A DNA stretch of 53,521 bases from the NCBI GenBank assembly GCA_030167865.1, contig JALAGF010002098.1, positions 1 to 53,521 on the forward strand, given 5' to 3'. Positions within the stretch are counted from its first letter, which is position 1. Each line of letters opens with the position of its first letter. The notes beneath the pieces are model-generated. The model was not told where the DNA came from. It was given only the letters and a program-made list of their open reading frames with translations, and did not search any database. This DNA comes from Craspedostauros australis. Taxonomy: Eukaryota. A program made the translations under genes and the position numbers. This document shows, piece by piece, positions 7,479 through 47,400 of this stretch.

Positions 7479-8795
7479 ATGTTCATCCGCAATTCCATTG
7501 TCCCACGCATGAAACATGTGCACCAGAAATCGTCGGCAGCAACCACCAGCCTGGCATTGCGGTTGAGACACCGTCTGCGTCTCAATGGCAACGTTTATGC
7601 CAACGCAGCTGCGCATTCGAGCAAAGGAATCCAGCAGAACTTCTCATCGTCAGCCTCGGCTCCAGCTGCTTCGTCCTGGAGGCGCCAAGGCCGTGGTCGC
7701 AGCGGCTGGTCGTCGGAAAGCCAGGCTGTGAGGACAGCCACGTTAATGTCCCTGGCACCTGCGCTATTGGTGTCCAGGTATACCATGGATTCCACGCCCG
7801 CATCAACAGAATCCAGCACCGACGCTCCAGGAGGTGTCGAGCCAGGCACGGACGCGGATCCGTACGAAAACTTGCCGGAGAAGGATGAACCAACGCATTG
7901 CTCCATCTGTAAGACGTACCGACAGGGCCCATGCCGTCCATTCTGGCGCAAAGTCGAAGCCTGCACGAAGGACCATGCGCCGGAGGAGGATGAGAAGCCA
8001 TCGTCGTCGTCGTCGTCGTCGTCATCCAAAACTGCAGCAGACTCGGATGCCAAAGGCGACAAGAACAATACCAATGCCGATGACGACGATGGGCCCATCA
8101 AGGAACCGTCGTGCATGAAGTACATGATGCCATTTGTGGAATGCGCCACCGAGTTTCGCAACCTGTACAACCTGATCGAGATGGACACCAACTACACACT
8201 CGGTATTCAGGATCTCGAAAAAGAAGCTGCAAAGTCACTGTGCTGGACCAAAACCAATGGTCCTGTGGTGGATTGGACGGCGTGGGAAGAGTATGTCGCA
8301 GAGAATCCGGACTGGAAACCATCCCAGACAACGACTGAATCCAAATCAGACGCGGTGTCAGCGGGCATGCCATTGTGGAGGCAACTGAAGCAAGATGAAG
8401 AACCAAACGTCATTTCCATCGAGGTCCACGTCGCCCAAATCGAGCCCGATGAGGTTGGGCAGCTGGAATGTGCGTACGCGCTGGACCAGGACGGCCACGT
8501 CATCGGATTCGCATACGGCAACAGTCCCCCCGCGGCCTCCAAGTCGCAGGATGGGACGGCACCGCAAGAGCCTTTCGTCACCATGAAGGTTCGCATCATC
8601 GTGGAACGAGCAAAGCACTTCACAATCGGTGCCTCCTACCTTCGTGAGACCGAACCAGTGGCCAACGATGACGCCAAGGATGGCAAGGACGCACAGAAGA
8701 ACGAGAAGACGCAGAAAAAGAAGACCGCAAAGCCGGTGATCTCGCATATGTACAAAAGCCACGTCTACAATGTTCCTGTCGCCGCCAAGAAGTAA
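7479..8795 (+). CDS. Mitochondrial GCK-domain / twin-CX9C (CHCH-like) protein
   Basis: Arg/Ser-rich presequence-like N-terminus; HCSIC..GPCRPFWRKVEAC (CX9C) and CMKYMMPFVEC (CX9C); single exon. Confidence 0.75.
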   Translation: MFIRNSIVPRMKHVHQKSSAATTSLALRLRHRLRLNGNVYANAAAHSSKGIQQNFSSSASAPAASSWRRQGRGRSGWSSESQAVRTATLMSLAPALLVSRYTMDSTPASTESSTDAPGGVEPGTDADPYENLPEKDEPTHCSICKTYRQGPCRPFWRKVEACTKDHAPEEDEKPSSSSSSSSSKTAADSDAKGDKNNTNADDDDGPIKEPSCMKYMMPFVECATEFRNLYNLIEMDTNYTLGIQDLEKEAAKSLCWTKTNGPVVDWTAWEEYVAENPDWKPSQTTTESKSDAVSAGMPLWRQLKQDEEPNVISIEVHVAQIEPDEVGQLECAYALDQDGHVIGFAYGNSPPAASKSQDGTAPQEPFVTMKVRIIVERAKHFTIGASYLRETEPVANDDAKDGKDAQKNEKTQKKKTAKPVISHMYKSHVYNVPVAAKK

Positions 8796-9376
8796 AACAA
8801 GCAGCGGAGCATGCGGCGTGCATCAAGTTGCTCTCGCGTGAGCTACTACTCGATGCCGTACCCGCACCGTGTGTTAAATCTAGAGAGAGAGAGCACTGGA
8901 GTTAAAGATCCTCACACTCGTACTCGTACACACAAACACATGCACTCATAAGTACTTCACACGTGTTTGTCCCAGCACCCTCGTTGCTTGGTTTGGCATC
9001 ATGGACGACGTCCGCAATCCCAAACGCCGGTCTTCCTATCGACCTCTATCTCCGCATTTGTAGTCGGAGGTCGGGCTCGTTCTTTGGTCTGTCCATTGAC
9101 ACGACTTGAGTGTCCCGTGTGTCTCGATCTTGGTATGTCCGTCCGTCCGGATCAGCATCTCGAAACCAAGCAGAAAAGAACAAAAGCTGATGGGTTTTCG
9201 AACACGACACATCAAAGAGCCACCACAAGCATCCAACACATCAGTGCGGAACCCATCAGTTGACAAAAAATCATCGCCACCATTTCACAAACAACAACAG
9301 CCCGCACCAAATCCAAATTGCCCATCACATCACATCACATTGCATCACATCCAATCATCCAACGCAACGAAGCACA

Positions 9377-10714
9377 ATGAAGGAGTTCAACCTCGTTCTG
9401 ACATGCGTCCTTCCTTCGCTGGCGCGCTCCTTTGCGCCTCTGCACACAAGCAATCGTGTATCTTCCTTACTACCATCATCCGCGTTGGCGCAAAAGATCC
9501 CAACATCGAATGTCTCACTGAACGCCGCGAAGAAGAAGAAAGCCGATGATGGCGACGATGATGAGGCCCCGTACTTGGGACCGTCCGTGGAGGTTCCCGA
9601 CATCCTCGACTTCGATCTCACAGGCGGCCGACCCGGCGCCATCATCGAGTCGGAGGAGCATCTGCAGAGGAAGGAGGAGATGTTCGAAGAGATGGAAGAT
9701 GGGACCCGAACCTACCCCAAATGGACCAACGACTTCGGTAGCTTCATCGAGGAAGAAGAGGCCGAGTACAACACGAACGATCCGGATGCCATCGATGCCA
9801 GCACGCTCGGTAGCTACACCATCCGCGATCTGCAGTCCAAATTCGACTACGAATGGGATCCCGAGACGGATGACGATCCCAACATCATCGATCCTGCGAC
9901 TCGCCATGAGTACGTGCAAGAAGTCGAGGTGGATGAGGAGGGCGTGGAGGTTGGCTACAATCCGATCTACGGTCCGTCCAATCCCATCGACACGCGAACC
10001 AAGAGGGGCGCCATGGACTCGTTCATGATCGATGAGAAGTCGCGTAACGATGACATACTACCCAAGCAGTTCCTAGATGGCGACCTTGAGATTGGATTCA
10101 ACGAAGACGTCGTACGATTCCGCAAGTCCCTCGACATCATCGAGACCTACACCGACAAATTCCTTCCCGATGACATGCTAATCCCCCGACATGTCGCCGA
10201 ATGGTACGGATACCCCGAACAGTTAAGCTACCCCTCCCAGAACTACACCAACAACCGGTTCACCGATCCCAAGGACCTCACCAATTTCGATGCCATGACT
10301 CCGCAAAGGGCCCAAGAGCGGGCTATGGAGCTGGCGAGCGCCAAGAACGCTGAGTGGCTTCCGGATGGTATTTCGCAGGAGTGGCACAAGTCGCAGAGAA
10401 AGCCATACGAGGACATCGGAACCCTGGTGGGATCCGTGCTCGAGGGAGAATGCGATCCGGATATCGTCGAGTTGATCCAACCCGCCCTCAAGATCCTGGG
10501 CGGATGCGCCGACTTGCTCAGCATCGAGAATGGCACCGTCTTCCGATTCTACTACCACGGCCTCATCAAGAACAAGTTCGGCATGGCCGCATGGACTGAG
10601 ACATTGATCCGGGATTGCGGAGTCGAGGTGACGGGAGTCGTCTTTGAGACTGGATTCAGACAGCGTGATCCTTCTTATGACAGTGGCAATCCCTACTACG
10701 GGCCCCAATGGTAG
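9377..10714 (+). CDS. Acidic plastid-targeted protein of unknown function with a C-terminal NifU_C-like segment
   Basis: MKEFNLVLTCVLPSLARS|FAP bipartite presequence, strong GC3 bias, D/E-rich body. Confidence 0.8.
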   Translation: MKEFNLVLTCVLPSLARSFAPLHTSNRVSSLLPSSALAQKIPTSNVSLNAAKKKKADDGDDDEAPYLGPSVEVPDILDFDLTGGRPGAIIESEEHLQRKEEMFEEMEDGTRTYPKWTNDFGSFIEEEEAEYNTNDPDAIDASTLGSYTIRDLQSKFDYEWDPETDDDPNIIDPATRHEYVQEVEVDEEGVEVGYNPIYGPSNPIDTRTKRGAMDSFMIDEKSRNDDILPKQFLDGDLEIGFNEDVVRFRKSLDIIETYTDKFLPDDMLIPRHVAEWYGYPEQLSYPSQNYTNNRFTDPKDLTNFDAMTPQRAQERAMELASAKNAEWLPDGISQEWHKSQRKPYEDIGTLVGSVLEGECDPDIVELIQPALKILGGCADLLSIENGTVFRFYYHGLIKNKFGMAAWTETLIRDCGVEVTGVVFETGFRQRDPSYDSGNPYYGPQW

Positions 10715-10874: not shown

Positions 10875-12713
10875 CTATTTTCCAATGCAGAAGTCAGAGA
10901 ATAGGACATCCAGAACATCTTCCACGTCGACGGCTCCCGTAATCCTGCCAAGTTCCGACGCAGCCAATCTCAACTCCTCAGCCGCCATATCGACCGCCAT
11001 CGTGCCTTGCTGGCTCAGATCGCCGAAGCGCTCCAACGCAGCCGCCGCAGATTCCACATGACCGCGGTGTCGTTCTCGCGTGATCATGGCGCTTTCTCCG
11101 TCGTTGCTGCCGTTCTGGAGCTTGTCAGAGATGGTCCCCGTCAACTGCTCCAGGAAGGTGTCTATGCCTTCTTGCGTGACGCAGGATATGCTGAGACCTC
11201 GCTCAAAGGGGGCGATTGGATCCTCCTTGGTTTTGCCATCCATCAGATCGAGCTTGTTGCGTAGTAGCATGATGGAAGAGGCATCCAGCTCGGATTCTCG
11301 CAGGATATCTTGAATTGCATCAAGGCCACTGCGCGTCTGCGTGCCGTCCACGACACCGATCACGACATCCGCGTCTTCCGCCACGCGCCGGGCTCTCTTC
11401 ATGCCTTCCAACTCCAACTCGTCCGTGGTGTCCGCCCGAACACCTGCCGTGTCCTTCAATGTGCACTTGATGCCCGAAAGATCCAAGTCCACCGAAAGCA
11501 CATCGCGCGTAGTGCCTGCGACCGGCGAAACGATCGCCGCATCTTTGCGTGCTAAAACATTGAAGAGACTCGATTTACCAGCATTCGGCGGGCCCAGGAT
11601 GGCCACGCTGACACCATCGCGAATCAATTCGCCTTTTCGATCGTCTTGCAGATGCTGTTGCATGGAGTCCAGCAGTTGCTGCATGTTCGTGGCCACACCA
11701 CCCCACACATCCCATTGCGCCGAATCGTCATCTAAGATATCGTCCTCTCCAAGCCGTTCGTCGTCGCCGAAGTCGATCACCGCTTCGGCGTGGGCCAGGC
11801 CCGAAACCAGCTGCCGGCGCCAGTCTTCGTACAGGGCCGACAGCTTGCCGTCCAGCTGATTCAGCGCTTGCTGCAGTTGCGTCTGGGTTTCGGCCGATAG
11901 AATATCCGCCAGCGCCTCGACTTGGACCAGATCCAACTTGCCGTTCCCGAACGCGCGCTGCGTGAATTCACCCGGCTCCGCCAACCGACATCCCATGGTG
12001 GGCAGAACCTGCAGAAGCCCCTGAACAACGGCCCGGCTGCCATGGCAATGCAGCTCGATCAGATCCTCCCCCGTGAAGGAGTTGGGACCTTCAAAAAGCA
12101 ACACCAGCGCGCTATCCAAAGCTTGGGGCCTCTGTGCATCGACGTTGCTGTTGTAGAGTTTTCGCAACACAGCGCGACGGGGCGCTGGCAGCTTTAGCTT
12201 GGGATTGGTGAGACCGCGCAGGACAGCGTGCGCGTTGGGACCTGACACGCGTACCACCGCAAGCGCCGTTGCTTGCTGCCCGCTGTATCCGGATGACAGC
12301 GCGAAGATCGTGTCCTGAGACGGATCTGCGGATTGCGATGGCGATGCCGTGTCGCCTGCGCTGCTGTTGAGGCGTGTCGCCCTGCGGGCAAGGAAATTGG
12401 CTGGCATGAACGTAGCCGTTGTACTGGTCCTGGTGGGTGTCTTGCATCGCACGATTGAATGGACGCCAAATTGGGCGGAGGTATCACCCACATGCGCACC
12501 GTATCCGCGTTGTGTTGATGTGTCATGGAACAGCCCATGACGATTGGGCCGAGCATGATATTGTGGCGCAGTGATGGAGAAGGGGCGCAGCGCAAGCACT
12601 CGTGATCGCGATAGTGTGCGATATTGTGTGATCATCGTGACTATCAGCCAAAAACAGAAACGATGATGGGTATGGATGGACCGTCGTTGCTTCCGCTGCT
12701 GTCGTCGTATCAT
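10875..12713 (-). CDS. mnmE: tRNA modification GTPase MnmE/TrmE (GTPBP3/MSS1), organellar; start codon uncertain (12713 or 12635)
   Basis: DTIFALSSG, FEGPNSFTGED.IELHCHGS, AEPGEFTQRAF.NGKLDL, G1 GPPNAGKSS, G2 GTTRD, G3 DTAG, G4 NKLD, C-terminal FCIGK. Confidence 0.96.
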   Translation of the reverse strand: MIRRQQRKQRRSIHTHHRFCFWLIVTMITQYRTLSRSRVLALRPFSITAPQYHARPNRHGLFHDTSTQRGYGAHVGDTSAQFGVHSIVRCKTPTRTSTTATFMPANFLARRATRLNSSAGDTASPSQSADPSQDTIFALSSGYSGQQATALAVVRVSGPNAHAVLRGLTNPKLKLPAPRRAVLRKLYNSNVDAQRPQALDSALVLLFEGPNSFTGEDLIELHCHGSRAVVQGLLQVLPTMGCRLAEPGEFTQRAFGNGKLDLVQVEALADILSAETQTQLQQALNQLDGKLSALYEDWRRQLVSGLAHAEAVIDFGDDERLGEDDILDDDSAQWDVWGGVATNMQQLLDSMQQHLQDDRKGELIRDGVSVAILGPPNAGKSSLFNVLARKDAAIVSPVAGTTRDVLSVDLDLSGIKCTLKDTAGVRADTTDELELEGMKRARRVAEDADVVIGVVDGTQTRSGLDAIQDILRESELDASSIMLLRNKLDLMDGKTKEDPIAPFERGLSISCVTQEGIDTFLEQLTGTISDKLQNGSNDGESAMITRERHRGHVESAAAALERFGDLSQQGTMAVDMAAEELRLAASELGRITGAVDVEDVLDVLFSDFCIGK

Positions 12714-13392
12714 GCTGGAAAGTTGTGACGAATTTGATGGCGATACTCGTGCGTACCAATGGTGGAGCGATGGGTATGCGGGGGCGTGTTTGGTGAGCCC
12801 TTGCTGTTCTGTTGAGGTGGGTTGGCACTGGTGAGACCCCGAGTCAGCACGTATCTTTGATGTGTTGGCGAATTGGTTGGATGCCAACATGCAACCGTTG
12901 GCTCAAGATTCAATGAATCCCGCGTCTTTAATCACGGATTACTGGCCACATTGCAGAAAAGCTTGACTTTTCGTCGTGGTTGGGGTGTTTCCGCACAACA
13001 TCACTGATGCCATCCTCGCGTGGTGCACTCGAACATACGACTACTACACTTGCCGTACTCGTACGAGGACATCCAAGCATCATGTCTCATGCCACAAATT
13101 GGAAGCGGCAGAATCTCTTGAGCCGGCAGGATCATCAGCAGCAACAGAAGAAGCAGGAACAGAAGCAGTAGATCGAATAGGACACGCGCATCCATTTTGT
13201 CCTTTGCCCCGTCTTCCTCAACCATCTCAACCAGCTCATCCGTTCATCCATCCATTTGTCTCGATCAATTGGCTGCGGGCTGCACTGACCTGCTCGTGGG
13301 GACATCAACAGAAACAGAACTCTGCTCTCGCGCTCGCTCCCGCTTCCGTCCTCACCGGGATCGCCCAATCCGCAGAAGCAAAAGTTTCGAGC

Positions 13393-16233
13393 ATGATGTT
13401 ATGTGGTCCTTGGCTCGGCTCGGCGAAAATACCAACGGATGTCGCCCTGTACAAAGATGTGTTCAACAGTGCTGTGTTTTGGGATGCCAACCTCGACGAA
13501 GATCTGGCGGAGGAGATGCTATACAACGCAGTGCAGGCCAACGATGGTTACAACGGAGACATCTTTTGGGAGCCGTTGCTACAGACCAGGTGGAAAACAA
13601 TCGAAACGGCCGCGCTCAATGGCTGCACGCCCGTAGCTGTGTATGTAACAGCAAAATATTTACAACCTTCCCAGGCAGATGAACCTCTCAAGAAGTGGCT
13701 GATGGAAGACGACAAAGAATACAAGAACGCGGCGATCGCCCTCGTTTATGTCATGGGGTCCCTCGACCCCAAACTGAAACCGAAGACCATCCGTGAGTCC
13801 ATCTTGAGGGATTTAGGGTACCTCCATGACATTACCAGTGAGAACAGTGTGCACAAATTCGTCACAACCACAGGTGATTCAACATTCTTCGTTGGAATCG
13901 CTAGCTTCCGACACAGAGGTGAATCCACCGGGAAGCCTGCACAGGTCGTGTTGAAGGACAGCGAAGTGGCGACAACAGATACAGTGCTAGTGTACGCCTC
14001 CGAGAGCGGCACCGGCAAGACAATTGAGCTCGCCGGAAATGCACACGCACGAAAAGGTGTGCTCAGTATCATATGTAGCGTCACCAAGGACCTGGAAGCA
14101 AAAGATGCTGGCGATCAGCGAACGGACGAGTGCATCAAAAAGCTCACGTGTTGTTTGAAGAAGGCCATGAGGTTGAATGACACTGCGTTCACCATCATCA
14201 TCAATGCAATCAGGGAATGGGAAGGCCCTCCCAAGGAAGCGAATGAAGCTGAAGCAAAAGATCAACGTGACGCAGCCACAGGCGCAGCCACTGTCTCCAA
14301 AGAGAAGCCAACTCAACAGCCAAAGCCTGTTCGAATTGTCGTTTGTGTCGACGAAGCATCCATGTACCCAACCCTCGCGCATGAAATCATCAGGAACCAC
14401 AAACACATTGGTACAAACTTGGGAAAGTACATCCAGACCCGATGCGGAGACAAGCTCGAAAAGACGAGCCAAGAGATCGAAGTTGTATTCTCGCTCGCAG
14501 GCACAGGTGTGTATGGAGTGGCGATTGGATCTCACGGTACGACCTACGAGATCGTCGATCCCAGCGCGCGCCATGTGGATCAAGACGTATACAGCGCACT
14601 TCTTGCCGAGTACGACGACAAGGAAGAGGCACTTCCAAAATTCAATCAGCTGGTTGAAGCCAATCTTCTCGGGATCATCGTCCAACACAACGCAAGGATG
14701 GCCTCCATCCTGATCGATCAGATCAGCATCTCGATGCTCCAATACACCAATCCCAATGAGGAGGCCAGACTCATGGCAAGGGTCTTCAACAAGTTCATGC
14801 GATGCAACGGACTCAAAGAGCTTTTAAACAACAACGAAAAAGACGTCAAGGCAGAAGTTGACAGAGCAATCGAGCGGATGCTCGTGGCATCACAGGCACT
14901 AGCAGCCCTTCTCTACCAAAGGAGCTTCGAGTTGGGGAAGGATGATGCTGTGGCAGAGAAGCTGGTGGAACGACTCGACTACGTCATCAAGTTCCAGCAC
15001 TTCGGTGATCTCAAGCCCCAAGATGGACTTGGCATGGCCAACCCCGACGACACCACAGTCATGGAGGTTCTTGTCGGCACCTACGGATTGGTGGCACCGA
15101 AAGTGTTTCCACCGGGAGAGGAAGAATCACAGACCCTAGAGGAGCCGTTCCAGGTGAGCGAAGCCATGCAGCTGCTTTGCGTCTGGCTCTTGCAGAGTGG
15201 CACGCGCTTGAAGGATGCCGATGATTTCTTGGGAACGACACCGTTTGCGTTCGAGCTGCTTTCCACTCAGCTTGTGAGCTGTGTGATTTCCGCGGCCATG
15301 ACCGTCGAAGAGAAGGAGAGGAAGGACGTGCCATCCATCTTGACAGAAACCCTACAGATGTTCTCAAGAGAGAGTGTGGATCCACAACACAAAGGTTGGT
15401 ACCTGGATGGAGAAATAAAAGAGGCATGGGATGCGCTTGAGGGCGTGATTCCTGTGTCAGCTGAGTGTAAGCTTGCCTTGGATGGCATGTATCATCACAA
15501 GTGTGAAATGTGGCTGGAAGACTTCACAGAGACTCAGGAGGCAGATGGGAGGCAGAAAAAGGTAGGACAGGTACAGAAGAAGGATGAGCAGAACGATGAT
15601 GCATTCGCCAACATCTGGCAGAATATTCAGGCAACGAAAATCAAACGAGGCGAGGCTGTAGATCTTGGCAAGGTGGCCAACTTGGATAGCTTCGATGTTG
15701 AAGCAGCATTACGAGATAAGACTGAAATCCTTGCGGTCGACAAGGATTTCGTGGGTGGACTTGCAGACATCAGAAGGATGAAGATGATTGTATCACCCGG
15801 ACGATTCATTCCGCCCCTCACAACTGTGGCTGAGGGCAGCAGCAACCTGGCAGATGGGTGCGTCTCCTTCGTCGGTGCCAAGTGGAGGAATGGAACGTTG
15901 GTTGATCACGCGCTGTACACCATCTGTATCCAGTCCAAGGACTATTTCGGATCTTCTGCCGTCGACAACGACAAGGTGAGAGAGAACAAGAACAGAGTGT
16001 ACCACGATCTTCTCGACATTCCATTCGGAGAGAACCGTCTGTACTGTCTGGCAACCAGGTTGGAGAAGTTTGCGAAACGAAAGATCTCGGAGGGTCACAA
16101 CGCAATGCCGTACGTGTCGTACCCAGTTGATAAAGGGAAATTGCTGCCCAGCATGATGTCGACGCTCGACAAACGCCGCAACCGGCACGAGAAGATCGCA
16201 AATGGTGCGATCGCTTTCACGCTCGATGGATAG
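13393..16233 (+). CDS. Large intronless P-loop NTPase + putative PD-(D/E)xK restriction-endonuclease-fold protein (Crinkler/RHS-like); ORF open from 12976
   Basis: Walker A-like VYASESGTGKT, Walker B IVVCVDEAS, SLAGTG, QHNARMA; C-terminal LADG...ICIQSKDY. Confidence 0.65.
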   Translation: MMLCGPWLGSAKIPTDVALYKDVFNSAVFWDANLDEDLAEEMLYNAVQANDGYNGDIFWEPLLQTRWKTIETAALNGCTPVAVYVTAKYLQPSQADEPLKKWLMEDDKEYKNAAIALVYVMGSLDPKLKPKTIRESILRDLGYLHDITSENSVHKFVTTTGDSTFFVGIASFRHRGESTGKPAQVVLKDSEVATTDTVLVYASESGTGKTIELAGNAHARKGVLSIICSVTKDLEAKDAGDQRTDECIKKLTCCLKKAMRLNDTAFTIIINAIREWEGPPKEANEAEAKDQRDAATGAATVSKEKPTQQPKPVRIVVCVDEASMYPTLAHEIIRNHKHIGTNLGKYIQTRCGDKLEKTSQEIEVVFSLAGTGVYGVAIGSHGTTYEIVDPSARHVDQDVYSALLAEYDDKEEALPKFNQLVEANLLGIIVQHNARMASILIDQISISMLQYTNPNEEARLMARVFNKFMRCNGLKELLNNNEKDVKAEVDRAIERMLVASQALAALLYQRSFELGKDDAVAEKLVERLDYVIKFQHFGDLKPQDGLGMANPDDTTVMEVLVGTYGLVAPKVFPPGEEESQTLEEPFQVSEAMQLLCVWLLQSGTRLKDADDFLGTTPFAFELLSTQLVSCVISAAMTVEEKERKDVPSILTETLQMFSRESVDPQHKGWYLDGEIKEAWDALEGVIPVSAECKLALDGMYHHKCEMWLEDFTETQEADGRQKKVGQVQKKDEQNDDAFANIWQNIQATKIKRGEAVDLGKVANLDSFDVEAALRDKTEILAVDKDFVGGLADIRRMKMIVSPGRFIPPLTTVAEGSSNLADGCVSFVGAKWRNGTLVDHALYTICIQSKDYFGSSAVDNDKVRENKNRVYHDLLDIPFGENRLYCLATRLEKFAKRKISEGHNAMPYVSYPVDKGKLLPSMMSTLDKRRNRHEKIANGAIAFTLDG

Positions 16234-16568
16234 TGGACGAGGGTACTGGAGAGGTGACGGGATGAGTTGTATATACTCATGCACAGGGAGCAGTTCCATT
16301 CATGGACGCACATACGAGGAACGTTACCAATAATAGTACATGTGATGCATGCGACAGTGCTTCTGCTCGAGAGACTGGCTTTCCATTGCAAATATGAAAA
16401 TAGCGTGCCGATGCAACACATGATGTGTGTGTCTTCTACCATACTCGTACCAAACGATGATGTGCATATTGGAACGAAGAGTTGGACGACGCAGCGGGCT
16501 GCAAAGATGCAGCATGTATCATCTTGCCAATGCAGACTTTAGTACTACGTACATCATGTTACTCGAGA

Positions 16569-18973
16569 TTAGATCCTCTTCACGTGTCGGATACCGAGCA
16601 GCTCGAAGCACTGCTTCATGGCGATGGTGGTGACATGGCACAGCAGCAGGCGGCTCTTCATTTCATCACTCTTGAGGACGCGGCACTGCGTGACAAAGTC
16701 GGAAGCCGAGATGGCAAGGCTGTAGACGTAGTCGCAGATGTGGTACGGCAGCATATCTTCGAGGGTGATGTCGATGACGTCCGTGAATTGCTGCAAGGTC
16801 AGGGCGAGGTTGCGCTCGGATGGATGGGACAGGGCGATCTGCTCGCCGCTCTTGAGCAGCGCATCGAGGTCGACATCGCATTCCGCCTTGGCCTTGGCGA
16901 TGATGCTCTCCAATCGAACGCGCGCGTAGAGGAGGTAGATGGCGGTGTTGCCCTTCGTGTCGAGCATGGCATCGTAGGAGAACTTGTAGTTCGTCGTTGG
17001 GTTGCGGCGCAGATCGAAGTACTTGACGGCGCCGTATCCGCAGGCCTCGGCGACTTCGTGCAGTTCGGCTTCGGTGATGTTGGCCTTGCCATCGGTGATG
17101 CGCTGCTTGAGCGACTCCTCCATGCGGCCGACGGCCTCGTCGAGCAGATCGACGAGGCGGACGGTGTCGCCGGAGCGCGTCTTGAAGCGCTTGCCGTCCT
17201 CTCCCATGACGGTTCCGAAACCGATGTGCTGGAGCTTCTGGCCCTCGTTGATCCAACCAATGTCGGTGGCCGCCGTGTTGCACATGGTGAAGTGGTCTGC
17301 CTGTGTGAAGTCGGTGATGACGATGATGCGCTTGGCCTTGATGGTCTGGAGGCGGTGCTTGAGCGCGGCCATGTCCGTGCTGTCGTAGCCGTAGCCACCG
17401 TCGCTCTTTTGCAGCATGAGCGGGACCTTGAACTTGCCGACGAAGACGCACTTCGCACCACCCTCCTCGATGCGGATGAGTCCCGCCTTGTTGAATTCGT
17501 CGATGACTGCGGGGATCTTGTCGTTGTAGAAGGACTCGCCGCACTCCTTGACGTTGATGTCGAGGCGGTCGTAGACCTTCTGGAACTCCTTGCGGGAGAC
17601 GTCGCACAATATCCTCCAGATGTTCATGCACTCCTCGTCGCCTGCCTGCAGCTTGACGACGTTGAGCTGCGCCGTCTTCTTGAAGTCGGCGTCGTCATCG
17701 AAACGCTGCTTGGCCGCTTTGTAAAAGGCTGTGAGGTCGGTGATGTTGGGCATGTTGTCGCTGAAGTTGGGGTACTCCTCTTTGAGGAACTGGATGAGCA
17801 TTCCGAACTGGGTGCCCCAGTCGCCCACGTGGTTGACGCGCTCCACGGTGTGACCGACGAATTCTAGGATGCGGCAGACGGATTCGCCGATGATGGTCGA
17901 TCGCAGATGTCCCACGTGCATTTCCTTGGCGATGTTGGGAGACGAGAAATCGACGACGCACTGAATGGGCGTCTTGGCCGGCTTGGTGAGCTGCCCGGTC
18001 GTGACGATGCGCTGGACGTGCTTCTGGAGGAAGGCGGGCGTCAGACGGCAGACGATGAAGGCGGGTTTCTGCACGGCGAGGTCGCTGATGATGGGGTGCG
18101 ATGTGCCCAGATGGGCGACGACGGCGTCCGCGATCTGCTGCGGGCTGTTGATGTTCTGCGGCAGACCTCCTGTCTTCTTGAGAGTTCCGAAGAGCGCCAT
18201 CGCCGCAGTGCACTGGTAATCGCCGTGCTTGGAGTCCTTGCACTTGGCGACCACCTTGGCCGGGATGGTGGCGGCGGGGAAGAGCGTCTCGAAGGCCTCG
18301 ATGAAGATCTGCGTGACGACCGTCTGGAGGCTTGGGTTGTTGGGGTCCACGGCTGGCGGTGGGAGGAAGTCGGGCACGGCTTCGACGGCCTTCTGCAGCG
18401 CTGCGGCGTGGGCCTTGTAGTATTTGAGCACGGCGGCTGGCCACTTGGGCTTGTTGGCCTCGTCCTGGGACAGCATGACGATGATGCAGAGGTCCGCGAC
18501 GGTGTCCGCATCACCCACCAGGTGGATGCCGGTGCTGGAGGCCTCCAGGGCGGCGGCGATCTTGTCCAGCGGCAGCGATCCCGCTCTGGACGTGCGTTCG
18601 ATCTCGCACCATTCATCCACCATGAATCCGTTGGCCGTGCCGCAGCCAGCCATGGAGGAAACGGCCTTGGCCATGCAGTTGCCGCCGCCGCCGAGCACGA
18701 AGTCGTCGCCGAAGACCAGCGCTGGCTTGGTGCCCGCGAATCCGGTCGGCACATCCTTCTTCGTTCCAGCGCTGACCGCCACCTTGTAATGCAGCGATGC
18801 GTACACCAGCTTGAGGGTCGCAGTGCACTTCTCCGCGCCATTCACCAGCAGGAGCTTGGGGGCTGGGACTTCCACCTTGGGTGCGGCGGCAGCTGCCTTT
18901 GCTGCGCCCTTCTTGTTGCCATTGTTACTGTTGTTGTTGCCATTGTTGCCATTGTTTCCGGGGGGCCCCTTGC

Positions 18974-19006
<33 letters not shown>

Positions 19007-19130
19007 GCGCTCCTCCTCCACCACCTGCGGCAGCCGCCTTCGCCGCTTGCTTCTTGGCTGCCTTCTCGGCCTTCTTGGCAGCCTTTTTCAGCTCGTTCTT
19101 GGACGGTCCCTTCTTCTCGGCTTCGCTCAT
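16569..19130 (-). CDS. RARS: Arginyl-tRNA synthetase with a Lys/Ala-rich N-terminal extension and a GST-like domain
   Basis: GDYQC, VVDFSSPNIAKEMHVGHLRSTIIG, NHVGDWGTQFGMLI, GESFYN, KSDGGYGY, RFKTRSG, GNTAIYLLYA. Confidence 0.97.
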
Positions 19131-19859
19131 CTTGCAATCCAAAGTTGAGTACTTCTATTTGCACTTGTATTTGCGCCTGCACTTGTATTTGTGGCTCTAC
19201 CGTTCTGTGGATGGTTGTGTTGTTGACGTTGTGCAATGCAATTCGATGCAGTATAATACAATGGAGATTCAAGCGTGGACGAAGATCCAGATGTTTGTGT
19301 TGGTTTTGAGGCTTTGTTGCGCGGGATCTTTGGACGCATGCACCCATCGCGATGATCGCAGTGTTGTGGTTTGGAGCGTGTCCAAACACCGGTTGACGGA
19401 CTGATCAAATGCGTGACCAGGTTGGTGCCAACCGAAACGTGTGACATCTGCGATCAACTCGTTCACGTTTGGGACCACGCTGCTGCCTACGACTACGAGT
19501 AGAGAGGGAACGTCCTCAACGCAGGCGAGGCTGCATCCTCCACGGCACAAGCATGAGCGACGGCATCCAATGTTACTAATCCTCCACTCTTAAAGGAAAC
19601 TATCGAGATGAGGTGAGAATAATGCAAGTTATCTAGAGGACTCTGCTTACGAGATATTTCTGCTTCTTTGGGGATCTATGGTAAAAGTAGTGTGGTCGAA
19701 AGATGGTGCAGTTGTGATGACGTTCGTGTTGTTGCTGTCGCCATTGCTGCTGATGTTGGCGATGGTCGCAGTCCATAATTGGTGACGACGGAATGGGAAG
19801 GAATCAAATGGAATGGGGAAAGACAAAGGAGAGCATCATGCTGCGCTCTACCTGCCTGC

Positions 19860-27953: not shown

Positions 27954-30900
27954 TTACAACCCCACTTCTGGATCCTGGCTGTCGCAATCCTTCGTCATCG
28001 TCGCCATGAACTCTTCCCCCCTGCGTTCCCATTCTGCGCGGTTGGCGATCGCGTAGTTCAAGTATTCGTCGCTGGATTTGCCGAACACGCCGCAGTCCTT
28101 CAATTTCTTCGCCAATGGAATGATGTAGAAGTCGAAGAAGCCCAGCTCCCCTTTGTACCAGCCGTCGACTGGGTTCGTTTCAGATCTGCCGCTGCGGTAG
28201 GCAGCGTAGCATTCCTTGAAGAAGCGCTCGTTCCACTTGCGGTACACGTGCCAGTGCTGCATCGTGTGGGCAACGTCCGAGGCTTGGATCAAGTGCTCGA
28301 TGACGATGGTCGCCTTGCGGTCGGTGGCGTCCTTGATGGATTCGTCGAAAGCGTTGTCCGAGAAGGCCTTGTCCCAGCGGCCGTTCCTCAGCTGCTTAAG
28401 ATCCTTGTCCACGATGTCTGTCGCCATGACTCCGTTGACGACAAGCTGTCGGAAGCGCTGCAGGTCCTCCCTGTTCCCGCAAAGGCAGTTGCGGAAGTCG
28501 GCGTACTGGTCGGATGTGAACAATTCCCAAGCCAGCGCCAAGGAGTTCTGCTCGGCGACGGATCGGTTGTCGTAGATGGCCGCAAGGCGCGTCTTCTCCT
28601 TGACCAGCTGGGCGTTCGGGACGCCTGGATGATCGACATCATGAATCATGGCAGAGAATGCGCATGCGAACTGCGTCAGCGGATCCGACGTGATGCCGTA
28701 GGTATGGTCGTGCAGCGATGCAGCGACATTCGCGCTACCGTCGGTGTGATTGCTGTTGCTGTTGCCGATGCCCGCGCTGTTTTTGTCGATGAAGTCGAGA
28801 TCGGACGGAGCAACGATGCGAGCAAGCAGCTTGATGACGGACATGGTCACGTGCGATGCGTGCTCGAAGTTGTGGAAGGGGTTGTCCTGGTACATCGACG
28901 CGATGGCTTCAACGAAGGATCGCAGCTGATCGATCACTTTCTGGTCGATATTTGGGGCGGAGTCGACGATTGAGTTTTGCTTGCGGGCGGCCCTCTGGTT
29001 GAATTCGGGGAGGTGGACGATCTCGCACACTTCATCCAACGGGGAGAAACTGCTAGACTCCACTGCTGAGCGAGAATGCACCATGCTTCGTAGATTGATG
29101 GGCATGCCGACCGCCTTCCTGTGTGCCACGACCTGTTGCAAGATCTGCGTGAGCATCACCACATTCCAATCCACCAACCGGAGCTGCTTTTCGTCCAAAC
29201 CACTCGATTGAACTCGCTGTTGGATCTCGGTTGATGTAAGGCTGTCTGGGAAAATGGTCTCATCATGGGTACTTTCCCACTCCATGCTGCTCCTGCTACT
29301 GACCATCGAACCACTTCTGGGACTTGACAATGATTTGGCGATCCAGTAGCTGAAGAGATGAGGCGAAGATCGTTCAGGAACGTGTACGTACGGCGGATGG
29401 CGGATTGTAGATGACATATAGCGGATGATCAATGAGGAGGAAGATGAGTAAGATATATTCCATGCAAATAGACCACGATGCGCAGAGTGAAGTACTGCAG
29501 AGGAAGCAGGTGTGGCGCCCGCCACGACAGGCAACAGCAATAATCGCAACAGCAAAATCAGCGACAAGGGCATCAACTTACGTTTGCATATCACCCTTGC
29601 CTTTGGCATGGACCGTCTCCGGTCTCTTCACCAGCCAGTACCCTTTTCCGCACTGTCGGATGCATTCAGCTGTGTCGCTAGACACATGGATGCGGCCATT
29701 CTCGCTCGTGCGCTCGATGCGAGATGCGGTGTTCATGGTGTCGCCGAACAGCTGAAATCGTGCTCGTTCTCCGCGCAGCACTCCGGCTGTCACCGGGCCC
29801 GAGTGCATGCCAATGCGGATGGAGAGATCGGCGGTGTCCGGGCCGTGCGTGATCTCCAACTCCTTCACAAGCACATTCATCCGCTTGAGGATATCGTGTG
29901 CAAAACGAACCATGATGGTGGCGTGATCCTTCTTTGGTTCTGGAATACCGGTGGCGGCCACGTAGCAGTCCCCAACAGTCTCAACCTTGAACACACGCCT
30001 TGCTTTGGCGATTTGATCAAACTGGGAGAAGACCGTTTCGAGCAAAGAGAAGACTTGCGTCGGTTCTTTTGGGGATAGATTTTGGTGTCGATTTTGTGCG
30101 TATGAGTATGGTGGCAACAACGGCGCAGAGGTGGCGTAAGCGCGAATGTTAGAGAAAGAGAGAGCGTCGATCGCCACAATTGTAGTTTCGCAAGCAAGGA
30201 GATCATCGTCCATTCGTCACGGCTGTCATCGCACCAAACACTCCTATATTTGCACACTTACCTCGAACTGAACTCCATGCGGTGAAACCGGAGATGTCAG
30301 CGAATAGGATTGTCGTCTCGAGGAAGAGATCAGCCAACGGCTGCCCTGTCTCCGTGTTCGCGTCTACCTCACCGTGCAAGAAGTTCTTAAGGTTGGAGAT
30401 GCGGATGTTCGCTGTATCACCACGCGCGTTCTTGTCGGAGAAGAGCCGATCTCGAATGGCGCTGGGGAAGAGCGCCGCCACGAGCACATTGGAGCGCGCG
30501 GCATTCTCAATGAGCGTTTCGTTGCGATGATTGACGAACCTGTCGTACATGAAGAAGATGGCAATCACAGCAAAGAATGCGCAGAAGATGACGATGGCGA
30601 ACGCCTCAGGGAGGAAGGTGTCATAGGGATCTTCGAACTGCTTTGATGGGTAGATATGCATCGTGTAGATGCAATGCCCGGGAGCACTGGTGTAGTCTGG
30701 ATGATCGGAAGGTGTGAGCACCCGCACCTTCTCGTACTTGTTGTAGCTTCTGTCGTGCAGGTCCTCTGTGAACGCGTGGGTGAGTATATTCCATTCCAAT
30801 GCACGGATGAGCGGAGTTAGGGCAGATACGTCCATGTACACACGCATCATACGAGGAGGCAAGAATGTGTAGAGAGGAGGCGTACCGTGCGTGCGCAGAT

Positions 30901-32797
30901 GATGGAAAAGAGAGCATACGTAGTTGGTGAGATGGGAGCTGAGTGTCGAGATGAGCAAAGCAGGTGCCAGACGCAAGGATGGAACACGTGCATGCGAGGA
31001 ATCAAGCATGCGGAGGAGATTGAATTGAGGTGGCGATTGATGTTTGCACTTACCGTATCCCTGGAAGTAGGCATTCTCTCCGTCAATGTTGTAAGTGAAG
31101 GTTTGGTTGCAGGTGTTGGTAATCACAGCCGTGATTCCCCGTACGTTGTTCGGAAGCAGTTGGTTCAAGGCCGCATCCCATGCTGTCGCGCCAACCAAAA
31201 TACCGACGATTTCGGAGTTTGGATCCGAAGCAACTTCGTACACTGGGTGGAAGACGAAGGTGTGCGGGTAGCTGATCTTGGAACCAGGCAATCTGGCGTG
31301 CATCACTTCGTGCTCCTCTTTCTTGAATGCAAACCCGCTGAACCTCCGTGCCGTTTGGAACAGCGTCTCGGTTCTCAGATGGATCAGACTGGCCTCCGTG
31401 ATTGGGGCACCAGATGCCTCCGTGGACATGAGGTTCCAGTTTAGGTAGTTGAAATCGAATGGTGCTGGCGCATACTCCCAAAGCGCGTACCAGCGCTCCC
31501 TCCCTTTGATGTCTGGGCCAAACCCGCGCTTTGCGCGATTCAGCGACGTAATGTAGGGGTGAAAGTTCTCAGGAGTGAAGTCGTCGAGGTTCCCATTCTC
31601 CTCGAGGTTGGCACTCTTCACGAGAGCATGGTGGTTCTTGATGCTAAAATCTACCCACTCATCATATGTCTCGTTCTTGACCATGTGAAGCAGCGTCACG
31701 GCTTCGGAGCGTGAGTACTTCAGAACCGTTTCTGCGGTTGTCCGGAAAGCCGGGATCGTGACGGCCGGCCAGGTCTGGTTTGTGGCAACGACGTAGTTGG
31801 AGACATGATCAGCTAGACCCGTGTACGCACTTCGAAGGCCGAGCTGTTGGCCAACAGCAGCGTCCCCCACAGTCCTCGCGAACTGCTCGAACTGCAGTTT
31901 GTTGGGGTGCGGGAGGAGTGTAGTGCAAAGGAGCGAAAACGCAAATAGGTTAGGCAAACGGGATTAGGGCTTGCGGGATGAAGAAGAGTATGACGTTTCT
32001 CCGTTTCTCGCACGCTTCGAACGGGAGGATGGTTTGGAACTTACTGCTGTCTCGAAGGTGTCTGTTTGCTGCTCTTCCAAGAACTGCGAAGCGAGGTGAC
32101 CAAGAGTGAATTGTTGACAAGAGGGAAAGCGGATGGAGAACGAGAACAGGGCAGAAGGTAGGCATGTATGTAGTTTATACGGTGAGAAAGAGAGGGGAGG
32201 CAGAGAAGCAGGACATGTTCCGCAGTCATCCACCATACAGGATTTGCATAGGAGACAAAGCAGAGTACGAGTAGATCGCAGGTGCCGACTGGACACGGCT
32301 CTGCATGAAAATGCGCAGGGCCACCAACCAACAACGAACCAAGGAAGAACGAAAAGTGAAGGACGAAATCAGCCAAACGAACATGGAAGGACAGTTTGAA
32401 CGCAAAGGCATGGTGTGGCACCACACCATCTGCCACTGCTCCATGGTGAAAGTCGACTTACGTGATGCGTTGTCCAGGTGACAGTAACGCCAGTTGCTAG
32501 GAGCGCAAAGGTCGTAGCAACTCGCCACAGCTGGACCTTCAGCGTGTCTTTCCGCGCAACGTTGCGGACTGCCTGTATCTCATCTTGGCTATGCTCTGCA
32601 TTGCTGCTGAGATCGCGGGAGCTTTCGTAGTCGACGGCATCCACCATTTCCTTGTCTGTGGCCGTCGTTCCTGTTTGGCCTTTTCTGTTGTTGTTGTTGT
32701 TGTTGCTGTTGCTGGTATCGTCTGTGTCACTCATGACCTCGCTGTCTGCGGAGGACGGCATGCCGCGAGAAAGGGGACCTTCGGTGCCGGGCGCCAT
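27954..32797 (-). CDS. Receptor guanylate cyclase-phosphodiesterase (GC/PDE) fusion; exons 32462-32797, 32045-32083, 31054-31891, 30262-30765, 29582-30065, 27954-29349
   Basis: Two TM segments flank a sensor region. Cyclase: LFADISGFTAWSSVR, FKVETVGDCYVA, IRIGMHSGPVTAGVL, FQLFGDTMNTASR, KGKGDMQTYW. PDE: NPFHNFEHASHV, HDVDHPG, ATDI, QASDVAH, FYIIPL. All five introns are GT-AG and frame-consistent. Confidence 0.93.
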
Positions 32798-45046: not shown

Positions 45047-45217
45047 ACCAAGGCAGGACACTTTCCACACCATCCGCAGCAGGAAGGAAACAGAACAATT
45101 CGGATCTCCACTCTCCCATTCATTGTCTCTCTCTTGTATTCCCACAGCCAATAGAAACATCAACAACAACATCCGCAGTACTATTACAGCACTATTAGAA
45201 CAGGACCAACATCAGCC

Positions 45218-46801
45218 ATGACCCGATCCGTCGTCGACTACGAATACCTCATCAACACCTCCTTCTCCGACACCAACCAGTCCATCAAGTCTGGTGTCCG
45301 TCCAAGATGGGAGCGCAAGCGTCAGCAGAGCCGTGGCGATAACCGCGTGCCGCTGTCGGCGTCGTCGCAACCGTCGCAAACGCAGGTGGGTGGTGATCGA
45401 TTCATTCCCAATCGGTCCGGAATGAACATGGACCTCAGCAAGCACATGATCCGATCGGATCAGTCGTCGTCCGCCTCGCAGATGGAGACCGACGGTGCAG
45501 CAGCCTCGTCCGGAGCGACGGATGGCAGCGCCCAGCAGGTCGGCGGCGTCAAGGCCGTGTCGGACGCCAGCAAGGATGAGTACGCATCGCGTCTGTCCGA
45601 GGCCTTGCTGGGATCCAGCGACAAGGCCAACCACCGCATCATGAGCTTCTCGGAGAAGGCACCCAAGCCCAAGGGTGACACCGTCAACAACCTCAACGTG
45701 CTGTACTCGGCGTCTGGAACGGCCAAGCAGAAGAAGACCAACGCCAAGCTCGTCACGAGACAGATCCCCTCCGTGCCAAGCCGGATCCTCGATGCTCCAG
45801 ACCTGATGGACGATTACTACCTCAACCTCCTGTCCTGGAGCGACACCAACATCCTCGCCGTTGCCTTGGGCCAGACCGTGTACCTGTGGAATGCCACTTC
45901 CGGCACCATCCAAGAGCTGTGCTCCTACGAGGGCGATGGCGCGCAGTCTCACATCTCCTCCGTAGCATGGGTGCAGGAAGGTGGAGCCCACCTGGCGGTC
46001 GGAACATCCGGCGGCACCACCCAGCTTTGGGATATCCACGCCGGCAAGCAGCTGCGATCCATGGATGGGCACAGCGATCGCGTGGGAGCATTGACTTGGA
46101 ATCGCCACATGCTCACCAGCGGCAGCCGCGACACCACAATCGTCAACCACGACGTGCGCGTCGCCCGCCACAACGTCGCCACGCTCCAGTGCCACGAGCA
46201 GGAGGTCTGCGGGCTGACCTGGAGCGGCGATGGCGAGATGCTGGCCAGCGGCGGCAACGACAACCTCCTGTGCCTTTGGGACGCCCGTGCCACCGCGGCA
46301 TCCACGCAGTCCCCGCTGTTCCGACTCACGGAGCACCAGGCCGCCGTCAAGGCCCTGGCGTGGTCGCCGCACGAGCGCAACCTCCTCGCGACGGGCGGCG
46401 GCACTGCCGATCGCTGCATCAAGTTCTGGAACACCCAGACGGGTGCCGAGCTGAACTCCATCGACACGGGATCGCAGGTCTGCGCGCTGCAATGGAATCC
46501 GCACGAGAAGGAGATCCTGTCGAGCCACGGCTTCGCGCGCAACCAGCTGTGCTTGTGGAAGTATCCCTCGATGGCCAAGGTGAAGGAGTTGGAGGGACAC
46601 ACATCGCGCGTGCTGCACATGGCGCTGAGCTCCGATGGCTGCACCGTCGTGTCGGCAGCCGGCGACGAAACCTTGCGGTTCTGGGATATCTTCGCGGCAC
46701 CATCCAAGTCGTCGAAGCACGCAGGTGCGGGGGCGTCTTCGTCCGTCGCGGACATGGTCCGCAATCCATCCAAGATGAGCTGGACGTCTCAGATTCGGTA
46801 G
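45218..46801 (+). CDS. CDC20: APC/C activator CDC20 (Fizzy), WD40 protein
   Basis: C-box DRFIPNR, KILR-like RIMSF, RILDAPDLMDDYYLNLLSWS, LASGGNDN, HQAAVKALAWSP, GGGTADR, AAGDETLRFW, C-terminal IR tail. Confidence 0.96.
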   Translation: MTRSVVDYEYLINTSFSDTNQSIKSGVRPRWERKRQQSRGDNRVPLSASSQPSQTQVGGDRFIPNRSGMNMDLSKHMIRSDQSSSASQMETDGAAASSGATDGSAQQVGGVKAVSDASKDEYASRLSEALLGSSDKANHRIMSFSEKAPKPKGDTVNNLNVLYSASGTAKQKKTNAKLVTRQIPSVPSRILDAPDLMDDYYLNLLSWSDTNILAVALGQTVYLWNATSGTIQELCSYEGDGAQSHISSVAWVQEGGAHLAVGTSGGTTQLWDIHAGKQLRSMDGHSDRVGALTWNRHMLTSGSRDTTIVNHDVRVARHNVATLQCHEQEVCGLTWSGDGEMLASGGNDNLLCLWDARATAASTQSPLFRLTEHQAAVKALAWSPHERNLLATGGGTADRCIKFWNTQTGAELNSIDTGSQVCALQWNPHEKEILSSHGFARNQLCLWKYPSMAKVKELEGHTSRVLHMALSSDGCTVVSAAGDETLRFWDIFAAPSKSSKHAGAGASSSVADMVRNPSKMSWTSQIR

Positions 46802-47400
46802 ACTGACAAATTCAATGCAACGCATGCGCTGTAATGCAGACAGAAGAGAGAGAGAGAGAGAGCAGGAGATGGGGCGAACAGGAGGGAGGAGACTAAATGC
46901 ATAAAATCAAAAACAGAAATACAGCAGATTGAGGAAGGAAGGAACGAACAACGTACGACAAGTAGTTATACCAATAACATAAACGAACAAGTAATAAACT
47001 ACAAGGACGAGGATGAGAGTGCAGGACGTGTTTTGGGACGAATAGACTGCGAACACGCGTGATCATGAATATGAACAGGAACATGAAGTCTGAACTGATC
47101 TGGCCTGGTCTAAGCCTGCACTAATTTCATTGGGGTGAGCTGAATCGGGTTGATCTCTCTCTCTCTCTGGATTTGTACCACAGCGCATGAAATGTGTGGG
47201 ATTGTGCCATTCTCGTATCTCATTTGAAACCAATGAAGCGGACCAACTCTTGATGCAGTTGATGATTGTGTCCACGAGTTCCAATCTCACTCATGTGCTT
47301 TCCGCATGCACCCCGGCCTCTCTTCCTCCCGAACATTGGCACTGCATCATCATTGCAGCACCATTCCAACAGATGCCTGCAGAACACTCTGATTCACACT

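Follow-up and report, generated by a model that had tools for sequence, protein, structure and literature searches.

In the Crinkler/RHS-type (CR) effectors, a P-loop nucleoside triphosphatase (NTPase), a helix-turn-helix (HTH) or winged-helix region and a C-terminal restriction-fold domain follow one another in this order, according to three papers (PMC5289972, PMC11064341 and PMC11342252). The same papers give NTPase, HTH region and restriction endonuclease (REase) domain as the commonest C-terminus of the Phytophthora CRN proteins (PMC5289972; PMC11064341), report CR proteins from free-living eukaryotes (PMC5289972) and number several CR-NTPase and CR-REase families (PMC11342252). In bacteria, the Avs proteins pair a STAND NTPase with a restriction-fold nuclease effector. 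Here we describe a gene of the diatom Craspedostauros australis that is carried on the plus strand of a 53,521-nucleotide stretch (GenBank assembly GCA_030167865.1, contig JALAGF010002098.1, positions 1 to 53,521 of the forward strand; hereafter the window), in an open frame from 12976 to 16233. We propose, with a rough probability of 0.6, that it encodes an intracellular protein of 946 amino acids from a diatom-wide family, in which an NTPase switch is joined to an Mrr-like nuclease-like domain and which, on weaker grounds, may have a role in genome conflict.

At the level of predicted folds, with the REase assignment weakly backed, the protein runs through NTPase, winged helix and nuclease-like domain in the order of the CR core, and it shares with CR effectors a variable N-terminal region, a eukaryotic host and the lack of a signal peptide. 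To this extent the first-pass annotation, which had called the gene Crinkler/RHS-like, was apt. In contrast to CR effectors, however, the diatom protein has no ubiquitin-like or LFLAK header, no RHSP match and no sequence link to any curated family, and the gene appears to be low in copy number, has housekeeping neighbours and belongs to an apparently free-living diatom rather than a parasite. Over the NTPase, lid and winged helix, no structural matches are better or longer than those with STAND NTPases (the NB-ARC and NACHT NLRs, CED-4/Apaf-1), but no NB-ARC, NACHT or AAA Pfam match was found in 53 family members and the diatom protein features no repeat-type sensor domain. The nuclease region that was matched in Avs3 is N-terminal (chain residues 24-230), whereas the nuclease-like domain of the diatom protein is C-terminal. 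With the Mrr-like PD-QxK nucleases (PF04471; LlaBIII) the protein has in common a D followed by QxK on the next strand, a hydrophobic strand after that and coupling to an NTPase. It differs from them in a D-QxK hairpin that is ~9 residues longer, in a match that is not significant and in the placement of the domain at the C-terminus behind an AAA+/STAND module and not next to a translocase. The design is known from CR effectors and from bacterial nucleases linked to STAND or AAA+ proteins, and we regard the family as a family-level newcomer to the NTPase-gated restriction-fold nucleases.

An intact open frame and its diatom-wide family

The features of the gene are as follows, where residue numbers refer to the 946-residue protein and counts are over aligned relatives:

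12976-16233, +, whole open frame, 1085 codons counted from GTG with the stop included; an in-frame TGA lies just 5' of it, at 12964
13393-16233, +, likely coding sequence, 946 amino acids plus stop, from the first ATG and the start of similarity to the relative P0085
13393-13782, +, N-terminal helical region, residues 1-130, variable among relatives; low model confidence (predicted local distance difference test, pLDDT, below 55 at residues 1-110)
13840-14577, +, predicted P-loop NTPase core of AAA+/STAND type, residues ~150-395, from predicted structure and structural matches
13906-13920, +, FRHRG family signature, which precedes Walker A by ~30 residues; F 40/44, R 41/44, H 43/44, G 44/44
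13996-14022, +, Walker A, ASESGTGKT; G206 47/47, G208 47/47, K209 44/47, T210 42/47
14338-14355, +, Walker B, VVCVDE, at the end of model strand 313-319; D320 52/52, E321 48/52
14491-14508, +, SLAGTG at a sensor-1-like position, at the end of model strand 362-369; G370 50/51, T371 49/51, G372 51/51
14581-15357, +, predicted helical lid and winged-helix-like region, residues ~397-655, from secondary structure and from STAND/ATPase_2 alignments that extend to residues 598-656
14689-14709, +, NxRMxSI motif (NARMA at 14689-14703), inside the lid/winged-helix region
15358-15729, +, variable linker, residues ~656-779, with few conserved columns and many gaps among relatives
15730-16230, +, putative restriction-endonuclease-like domain at the C-terminus, residues ~780-946, from predicted fold, conservation and weak nuclease-enriched matches
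15847-15864, +, LADGCV, with the candidate catalytic D821 at 15853-15855
15922-15945, +, ICIQSKDY, with QSKD at 15931-15942

By plain arithmetic, the chance of 1085 stop-free codons is ~2e-23, and an origin of the frame by chance is excluded. The first ATG lies at 13393 (frame residue 140), and P0085, the closest full-length relative and a transcriptome-derived sequence, is 37% identical to the frame and collinear with it from frame residue 151 to the C-terminus, without a frame break. The coding sequence was therefore taken as 13393-16233. The unbroken alignment with a transcript-derived homologue is consistent with an intronless gene, in line with the intronless frame of about 950-1085 amino acids in the first-pass annotation, and the motifs that had been read from this frame (ASESGTGKT, VVCVDE, SLAGTG, NARMA and ADG...ICIQSKDY) all lie at the coordinates listed above. 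Residues 1-130 yielded neither a signal peptide, a known header nor a Pfam match, which agrees with the earlier failure to see an LFLAK/ubiquitin-like header or a signal peptide; terminal repeats had not been seen either.

When 1.84 billion representatives, with clusters formed at 50% identity, were searched exhaustively with phmmer, 83 relatives emerged at E ≤ 1e-3; 58 of these reach E ≤ 1e-10 and 15 reach E ≤ 1e-30. The query protein itself has no match in Pfam, NCBIfam or PDB sequences and nothing usable in PADLOC or PHROGs. None of the 83 relatives reaches the curated cut-off of any Pfam family, and a scan of 53 members at E ≤ 10 found no Pfam family that was matched by more than two of them and no Crinkler, RHSP, NACHT, NB-ARC, AAA or Mrr family. 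Both halves, NTPase and C-terminal, are found together and in the same order in 35/83 relatives, while 20/83 have the N-terminal part alone and 28/83 the C-terminal part alone or a small piece; the 48 relatives without both halves are 88-883 amino acids long, and most of them are short (88-660 amino acids) and fragment-like. Because relatives with both halves keep the order and those with a single half mostly look like fragments, we consider the architecture to be fixed rather than shuffled.

Sources were looked up for 30 of the 83 clusters and comprise MMETSP transcriptomes together with JGI, ENA and Logan assemblies. All named members among these 30 are diatoms: Seminavis robusta, a Bacillariaceae metagenome-assembled genome (MAG) and Nitzschia sp. 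RCC80. Relatives are present in MMETSP transcript sets of other species and in S. robusta, whose member is annotated as an 'expressed unknown protein' and has a gene span of 2535 bases for 844 amino acids, which fits a single exon. The term 'lineage-specific', which had been applied to the gene at first, is too narrow for 83 clusters at 50% identity with named members from three diatom sources. Instead, the family is real, conserved and diatom-wide, and it is absent from curated libraries. It appears to be undescribed in the literature searched, although Zhang et al. 2016 or its supplements may already list it: a search under diatom STAND/nuclease immunity returned nothing on the family, and the Seminavis gene identifier was not found in the papers searched. 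Two metagenome-contig scans, one with the family alignment and one with the relative P0032, gave no confirmed locus.

Divergence within the family is high. The nearest relatives are 37-41% identical to the query, and a quick maximum-likelihood tree places the query beside P0002/P0085 (support 99), in a clade of 8 rows (support 98), with long terminal branches (median 0.68 changes per site). Certain positions are close to invariant. In the N-terminal part these include the G of FRHxG at residues 172-176 (44/44), which is preceded by 46-434 residues across relatives, and three residues of NxRMxSI at 433-439 (N433 50/50, R435 49/50, S438 51/51). The middle region contributes E621 (60/63) and R643 (61/63), and the C-terminal domain S817 (60/62), D821 (62/63), G822 (62/63), Q847 (59/63), K849 (61/63), D850 (58/63), G879 (61/61) and R882 (59/61). 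In one relative, P0019, residues 617-666, in the linker that joins the NTPase to the C-terminal domain, match the SAM domain weakly (E 8.8e-4, narrowly short of the Pfam cut-off), which suggests that the linker may be able to host inserted modules.

Predicted AAA+/STAND-type NTPase in the N-terminal part

The N-terminal 720 residues were modelled with AlphaFold2 from a 53-row alignment (mean pLDDT 78.7, predicted template modelling score (pTM) 0.80), with residues 130-650 mostly above 85 and a helical, low-confidence stretch at residues 1-110. In this model, the GxGKT of Walker A follows strand 198-201, the Walker B residues D320/E321 and GTG 370-372 each close a strand, and R435 lies in a lid helix. 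Of the PDB matches from Foldseek, five reach E ≤ 1e-3 and lead to NRC3, a plant NLR, and to ORC5 of yeast; Cdc6, CED-4, Apaf-1 and two archaeal ATPases (2fna and 2qen) come next below. An independent structural alignment against 48,161 representative chains, of which the top 50 rows were read, consisted entirely of AAA+/STAND NTPases (50/50), and a second structural search agreed. The highest scores were obtained with WRR4A (Z 10.6, root-mean-square deviation 6.6, 281 residues aligned) and PAB2304 (2qen; Z 9.9-10.4, 290/350 aligned), ahead of NLRC4 (Z 9.2), CED-4 (Z 9.2), SSO1545 (2fna; Z 8.9) and a wheat resistosome (Z 8.9). Classical AAA+ proteins scored Z ~7-8, Avs5 Z 7.6, Avs3 Z 7.0, MuB Z 7.6 (at 15% identity) and TnsC, in three structures, Z 6.7-7.1. 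The longest alignments cover 270-310 residues, up to model residues 598-656, and their partners consist of nucleotide-binding, helical and winged-helix domains.

On the basis of these models, we confidently assign the N-terminal part as a predicted AAA+/STAND-type P-loop NTPase with a helical lid and a winged-helix-like region. STAND and classical AAA+ rows differ by no more than ~2 Z units, and no Pfam NTPase family was matched in any of the 53 members.

The archaeal ATPase_2 proteins (PAB2304, 2qen; SSO1545, 2fna) share the layout of NTPase plus winged helix and provide the second-best match, over nearly the whole chain. They are often fused to DUF234, which we take to have a restriction-type fold. 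Kinship with the ATPase_2-DUF234 proteins was nevertheless rejected at the sequence level by a profile comparison: hhalign against 28 archaeal members aligned only the P-loop region from Walker A to Walker B (probability 2.8%) and nothing C-terminal, and families of the PF01637/PF03008 type were unmatched in the 53 members at E ≤ 10.

Putative restriction-fold nuclease at the C-terminus

A model of the C-terminal 226 residues, built from a 35-row alignment (mean pLDDT 76.6, pTM 0.73), comprises helix 64-75, strands 89-92, 102-112 and 115-128, helix 139-158 and strand 161-168 in model numbering. This predicted order, alpha-beta-beta-beta-alpha-beta, is that of the restriction-endonuclease core. 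D821 (model residue 101) immediately precedes the second strand, and Q847 and K849 (model residues 127 and 129) sit where the third strand ends; this strand pairs with the beginning of the second. According to PMC11037411 and PMC3874165, Mrr-like catalytic domains, among them the nuclease at the N-terminus of Type ISP enzymes, carry the motif as PD-QxK.

Foldseek gave no match for this part at E ≤ 1e-3, the best being MUS81 (9.1e-3), then MspJI, EndoMS, Can2 and FokI. A wide structural search reached a maximum of Z 4.0, with 1y88 as the best nuclease (Z 3.9) and the nuclease region of LlaBIII at Z 3.7, and Card1 was best in a second search (Z 4.5). Restriction enzymes and nucleases of restriction fold make up ~25/50 of the top rows in the wide search and ~33/50 in the second, as judged from entry titles. 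The rows of the wide search include the N-terminal region of LlaBIII, Can1/Can2, NucS, EcoT38I, MspJI, FokI, BbvCI and Card1, and further PaqCI, Cap4, XPF/Hef, SdaI, NotI and Cfr10I. Such an enrichment is unlikely to have arisen by chance. Among the viral structures of BFVD there was one match at E ≤ 1e-3, to an unnamed protein, and a few named nucleases appeared at E > 0.06.

Kinship with Mrr was examined by hhalign, comparing 27 archaeal Mrr_cat domains with a family C-terminal profile of 59 rows. In the alignment, of 89 columns, the family's ADG meets the D of Mrr, the two QxK motifs coincide and the hydrophobic strand that comes next lies on its counterpart; the score of 15.4 exceeds the maximum of 30 column-shuffled controls (14.6) and a reversed control (12.3) by a narrow margin. 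Pfam Mrr_cat (PF04471) itself was unmatched by the query and the 53 members, and we regard the profile similarity as suggestive of Mrr kinship. Taken together, the predicted topology and the near-invariant D...QxK(D) are consistent with an Mrr-like restriction-fold nuclease. The first-pass annotation had proposed a C-terminal PD-(D/E)xK active site, to be dropped if no restriction-endonuclease fold were predicted there. Its proposal holds for the secondary-structure order and the conserved D...QxK, whereas the fold, which the structure prediction does display, is carried by weak scores (Z ≤ 4.5).

Gene copies and genomic neighbourhood

The two genes that flank the frame are:

10875-12890, -, MnmE/TrmE GTPase, upstream neighbour on the opposite strand (PF12631 3.9e-49, PF10396 6.2e-35)
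16569-19142, -, arginyl-tRNA synthetase (ArgRS), downstream neighbour, convergent (PF00750 3e-115)

Both Pfam assignments confirm the initial placement of the gene between mnmE and ArgRS. The remaining window genes are ordinary nuclear ones, encoding a SOUL haem-binding protein, a cyclic-nucleotide phosphodiesterase, RRP4, a FYVE protein, CDC20/Fizzy and a MORN-repeat protein. The third-position GC of the studied gene (0.62) lies within the range of the window (0.60-0.84; MnmE 0.64, ArgRS 0.84), and its overall GC is likewise within the window's range, like that of its neighbours. The gene is not bounded by terminal repeats, either inverted or direct, the one repeat pair nearby being a CAG-type low-complexity match to the 5' end of ArgRS, and no second gene copy, transposase or integrase was found in the 53.5-kb window. 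The idea of a mobile or selfish element, raised in the first-pass annotation, is not supported by this absence of flanking repeats, by the housekeeping neighbours or by the third-position GC.

Diverged copies were encountered in run X1, the single public run that shares words with the window; it consists of contigs whose RNA nature is a guess, and it is uninformative on expression level. Seven pieces of X1 match. The ArgRS piece (16519-17161) has 0 differences in 643 bases, while four pieces over 15349-16226 differ at 1/236, 6/286, 11/112 and 22/355 positions (0.4% to ~10%); two longer contigs match over ~36 bases each (14685-14721, at NARMAS, and 15897-15932) and diverge on either side. The 27 listed differences comprise 11 synonymous and 16 non-synonymous changes, with no indels or stops, and the codons of G822, Q847 and G879 carry synonymous changes only. 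Because the pieces of the 3' part differ where ArgRS is identical, diverged intact copies exist, as alleles or paralogues, which is no more than a hint of a small gene family or of faster evolution. Each of two other sources has two or more paralogues: the MMETSP1442 transcriptome holds two divergent members (P0085 and P0038/P0108) and the Bacillariaceae MAG two family proteins. Seminavis has one protein among 10 matches of one search. Overall, copy number looks low.

Several side observations concern the rest of the window. The MnmE homologue (10875-12890, -) has ~190 residues ahead of its TrmE_N domain that may be an organelle-targeting extension. CTG/CAG-like repeats at 18900-19030 (the 5' end of ArgRS) and at 13122-13164 (the untranslated leader of the studied gene) are the source of the sole 'inverted repeat' and are not element termini. 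A 1545-amino-acid open frame at 48263-52900 (+) without a Pfam match at E ≤ 1e-4 is a further large unannotated protein, and three open frames of 438-493 amino acids (9260-10714, +; 7479-8795, +; 30203-31684, -) have no Pfam match. Long frames antisense to ArgRS and CDC20 (16482-17867, +; 17907-19148, +; 45212-46825, -), with a first-position GC of 0.80-0.86, seem to be a side effect of high third-position GC in the genes on the other strand rather than genes themselves.

Discussion

In the proposal that we favour, the protein would consist of four parts: a variable helical N-terminus, an AAA+/STAND-type NTPase with lid and winged helix, a variable linker and a restriction-fold C-terminal domain. 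The NTPase would act as a nucleotide-dependent switch that may bind nucleic acid, oligomerise or both, and, once switched, it would license a metal-dependent nuclease domain to cut DNA. More weakly, the role in genome conflict might be defence against viruses or foreign DNA, or might reflect descent from a selfish element. Nuclease activity, NTP gating and biological role are what we infer from the parts described above.

A number of results weigh against this proposal. No match in Pfam, NCBIfam, PADLOC, PHROG or PDB sequences backs any function, and the housekeeping neighbours and ordinary codon usage give no hint of a conflict locus. No nuclease match to the C-terminal domain is significant singly (best Z 4.5, best Foldseek E 9e-3), and the Mrr profile comparison alone is not significant either (E 0.096, probability 0.6%). 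In addition, Q stands for the acidic residue of the classical motif, and ADF/cofilin folds, which are non-enzymatic, take 12/50 rows of the wide search and 13/50 of the second at equal or higher Z, including the top two rows of the wide search; the cofilin 2i2q and 5y1z both score Z 4.0 there.

Given these C-terminal results, with cofilin folds that tie with or exceed the nucleases (Z 4.0 against 3.9 for 1y88), the C-terminal domain could be a non-catalytic ADF/cofilin-like or binding module, in which case the protein would be a scaffold or NTPase switch of different output. We consider this unlikely, because S817, D821, Q847, K849, D850 and R882 are polar or charged, near-invariant and located at PD...(D/E/Q)xK positions on strands 2 and 3. 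Moreover, PD-QxK is an active variant in Mrr-like enzymes according to PMC11037411 and PMC3874165, and nuclease rows, counted by title as above, outnumber cofilin rows in both searches (~25 against 12 and ~33 against 13). A diatom-specific housekeeping factor of DNA metabolism, in which an ORC/Cdc6- or clamp-loader-like ATPase delivers a structure-specific nuclease under vertical inheritance, would agree with the neighbourhood, with the single Seminavis protein among 10 matches of one search, with ORC5, Cdc6, RFC and MUS81/XPF-type nucleases among the structural matches, and with the fixed architecture and conserved motifs over 83 clusters, which imply long-term purifying selection. Against it stand the strong divergence of the relatives, in identity and in branch length, the variable N-terminus and linker and the paralogues of MMETSP1442 (at least two, divergent) and the Bacillariaceae MAG. 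The diverged 3' copies in X1 beside an identical ArgRS piece, and a third-position GC of 0.62 against 0.84 for ArgRS, which suggests low expression, also argue against it, making a housekeeping role improbable in our view.

A closer relationship to CR effectors would mean that the protein is a true member of that class, with NTPase and nuclease drawn from CR-NTPase and CR-REase families and a recognisable header lost or never gained. The match to the commonest Phytophthora CRN C-terminus, the occurrence of CR proteins in free-living eukaryotes and the existence of several numbered families, all as described in the papers cited at the outset, leave room for this, as does the pre-NTPase region, whose 46-434 residues vary as CR headers do. 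Language-model look-alikes of both halves, which we treat as leads only, are unnamed eukaryotic clusters that are commonest in Mucoromycota (0.98 and 0.95), and one look-alike cluster, at 0.88, has PF20147 Crinkler in 79% of its members. On the other hand, PF20147 and RHSP were matched by 0/83 relatives at E ≤ 0.01 and by 0/53 members at E ≤ 10, the query lacks both at E ≤ 1, the 30 examined clusters include no named protein from a fungus or an oomycete, and copy number looks low rather than expanded; membership of the CR class is thus possible, if doubtful. An active or recently domesticated mobile element, made up of a Tn7/Mu-like TnsC/MuB-type ATPase and a TnsA-type nuclease inserted between mnmE and ArgRS, is very unlikely. 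Zhang et al. 2016 are said to derive CR modules from such transposons, MuB and the three TnsC structures are among the NTPase matches and diverged copies exist in X1, but dozens of unrelated AAA+ proteins score level with MuB and TnsC, the gene lacks flanking terminal repeats and resembles its neighbours in composition, and the window holds no transposase, integrase or second copy.

Within the favoured proposal of an NTPase-switched, Mrr-like nuclease, a more specific version is a diatom immune receptor-effector, in which the STAND-like NTPase would detect a cue from viruses or foreign DNA via the variable N-terminus or linker, oligomerise and activate its own Mrr-like nuclease. We offer this version as speculative and unlikely as it stands. 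If true, it would provide a eukaryotic counterpart of bacterial Avs-type STAND-nuclease defence, in a group of algae about whose antiviral immunity very little is known. Viruses and parasites shape the populations of diatoms, which are major primary producers, and almost no intracellular defence genes are known from them, while a switch-type NTPase joined to a nuclease-like domain is the design of many immune or selfish systems in bacteria, plants and animals. The family is therefore a candidate for an immune or selfish function, and its 83 clusters without annotation mark a gap in protein-family databases.

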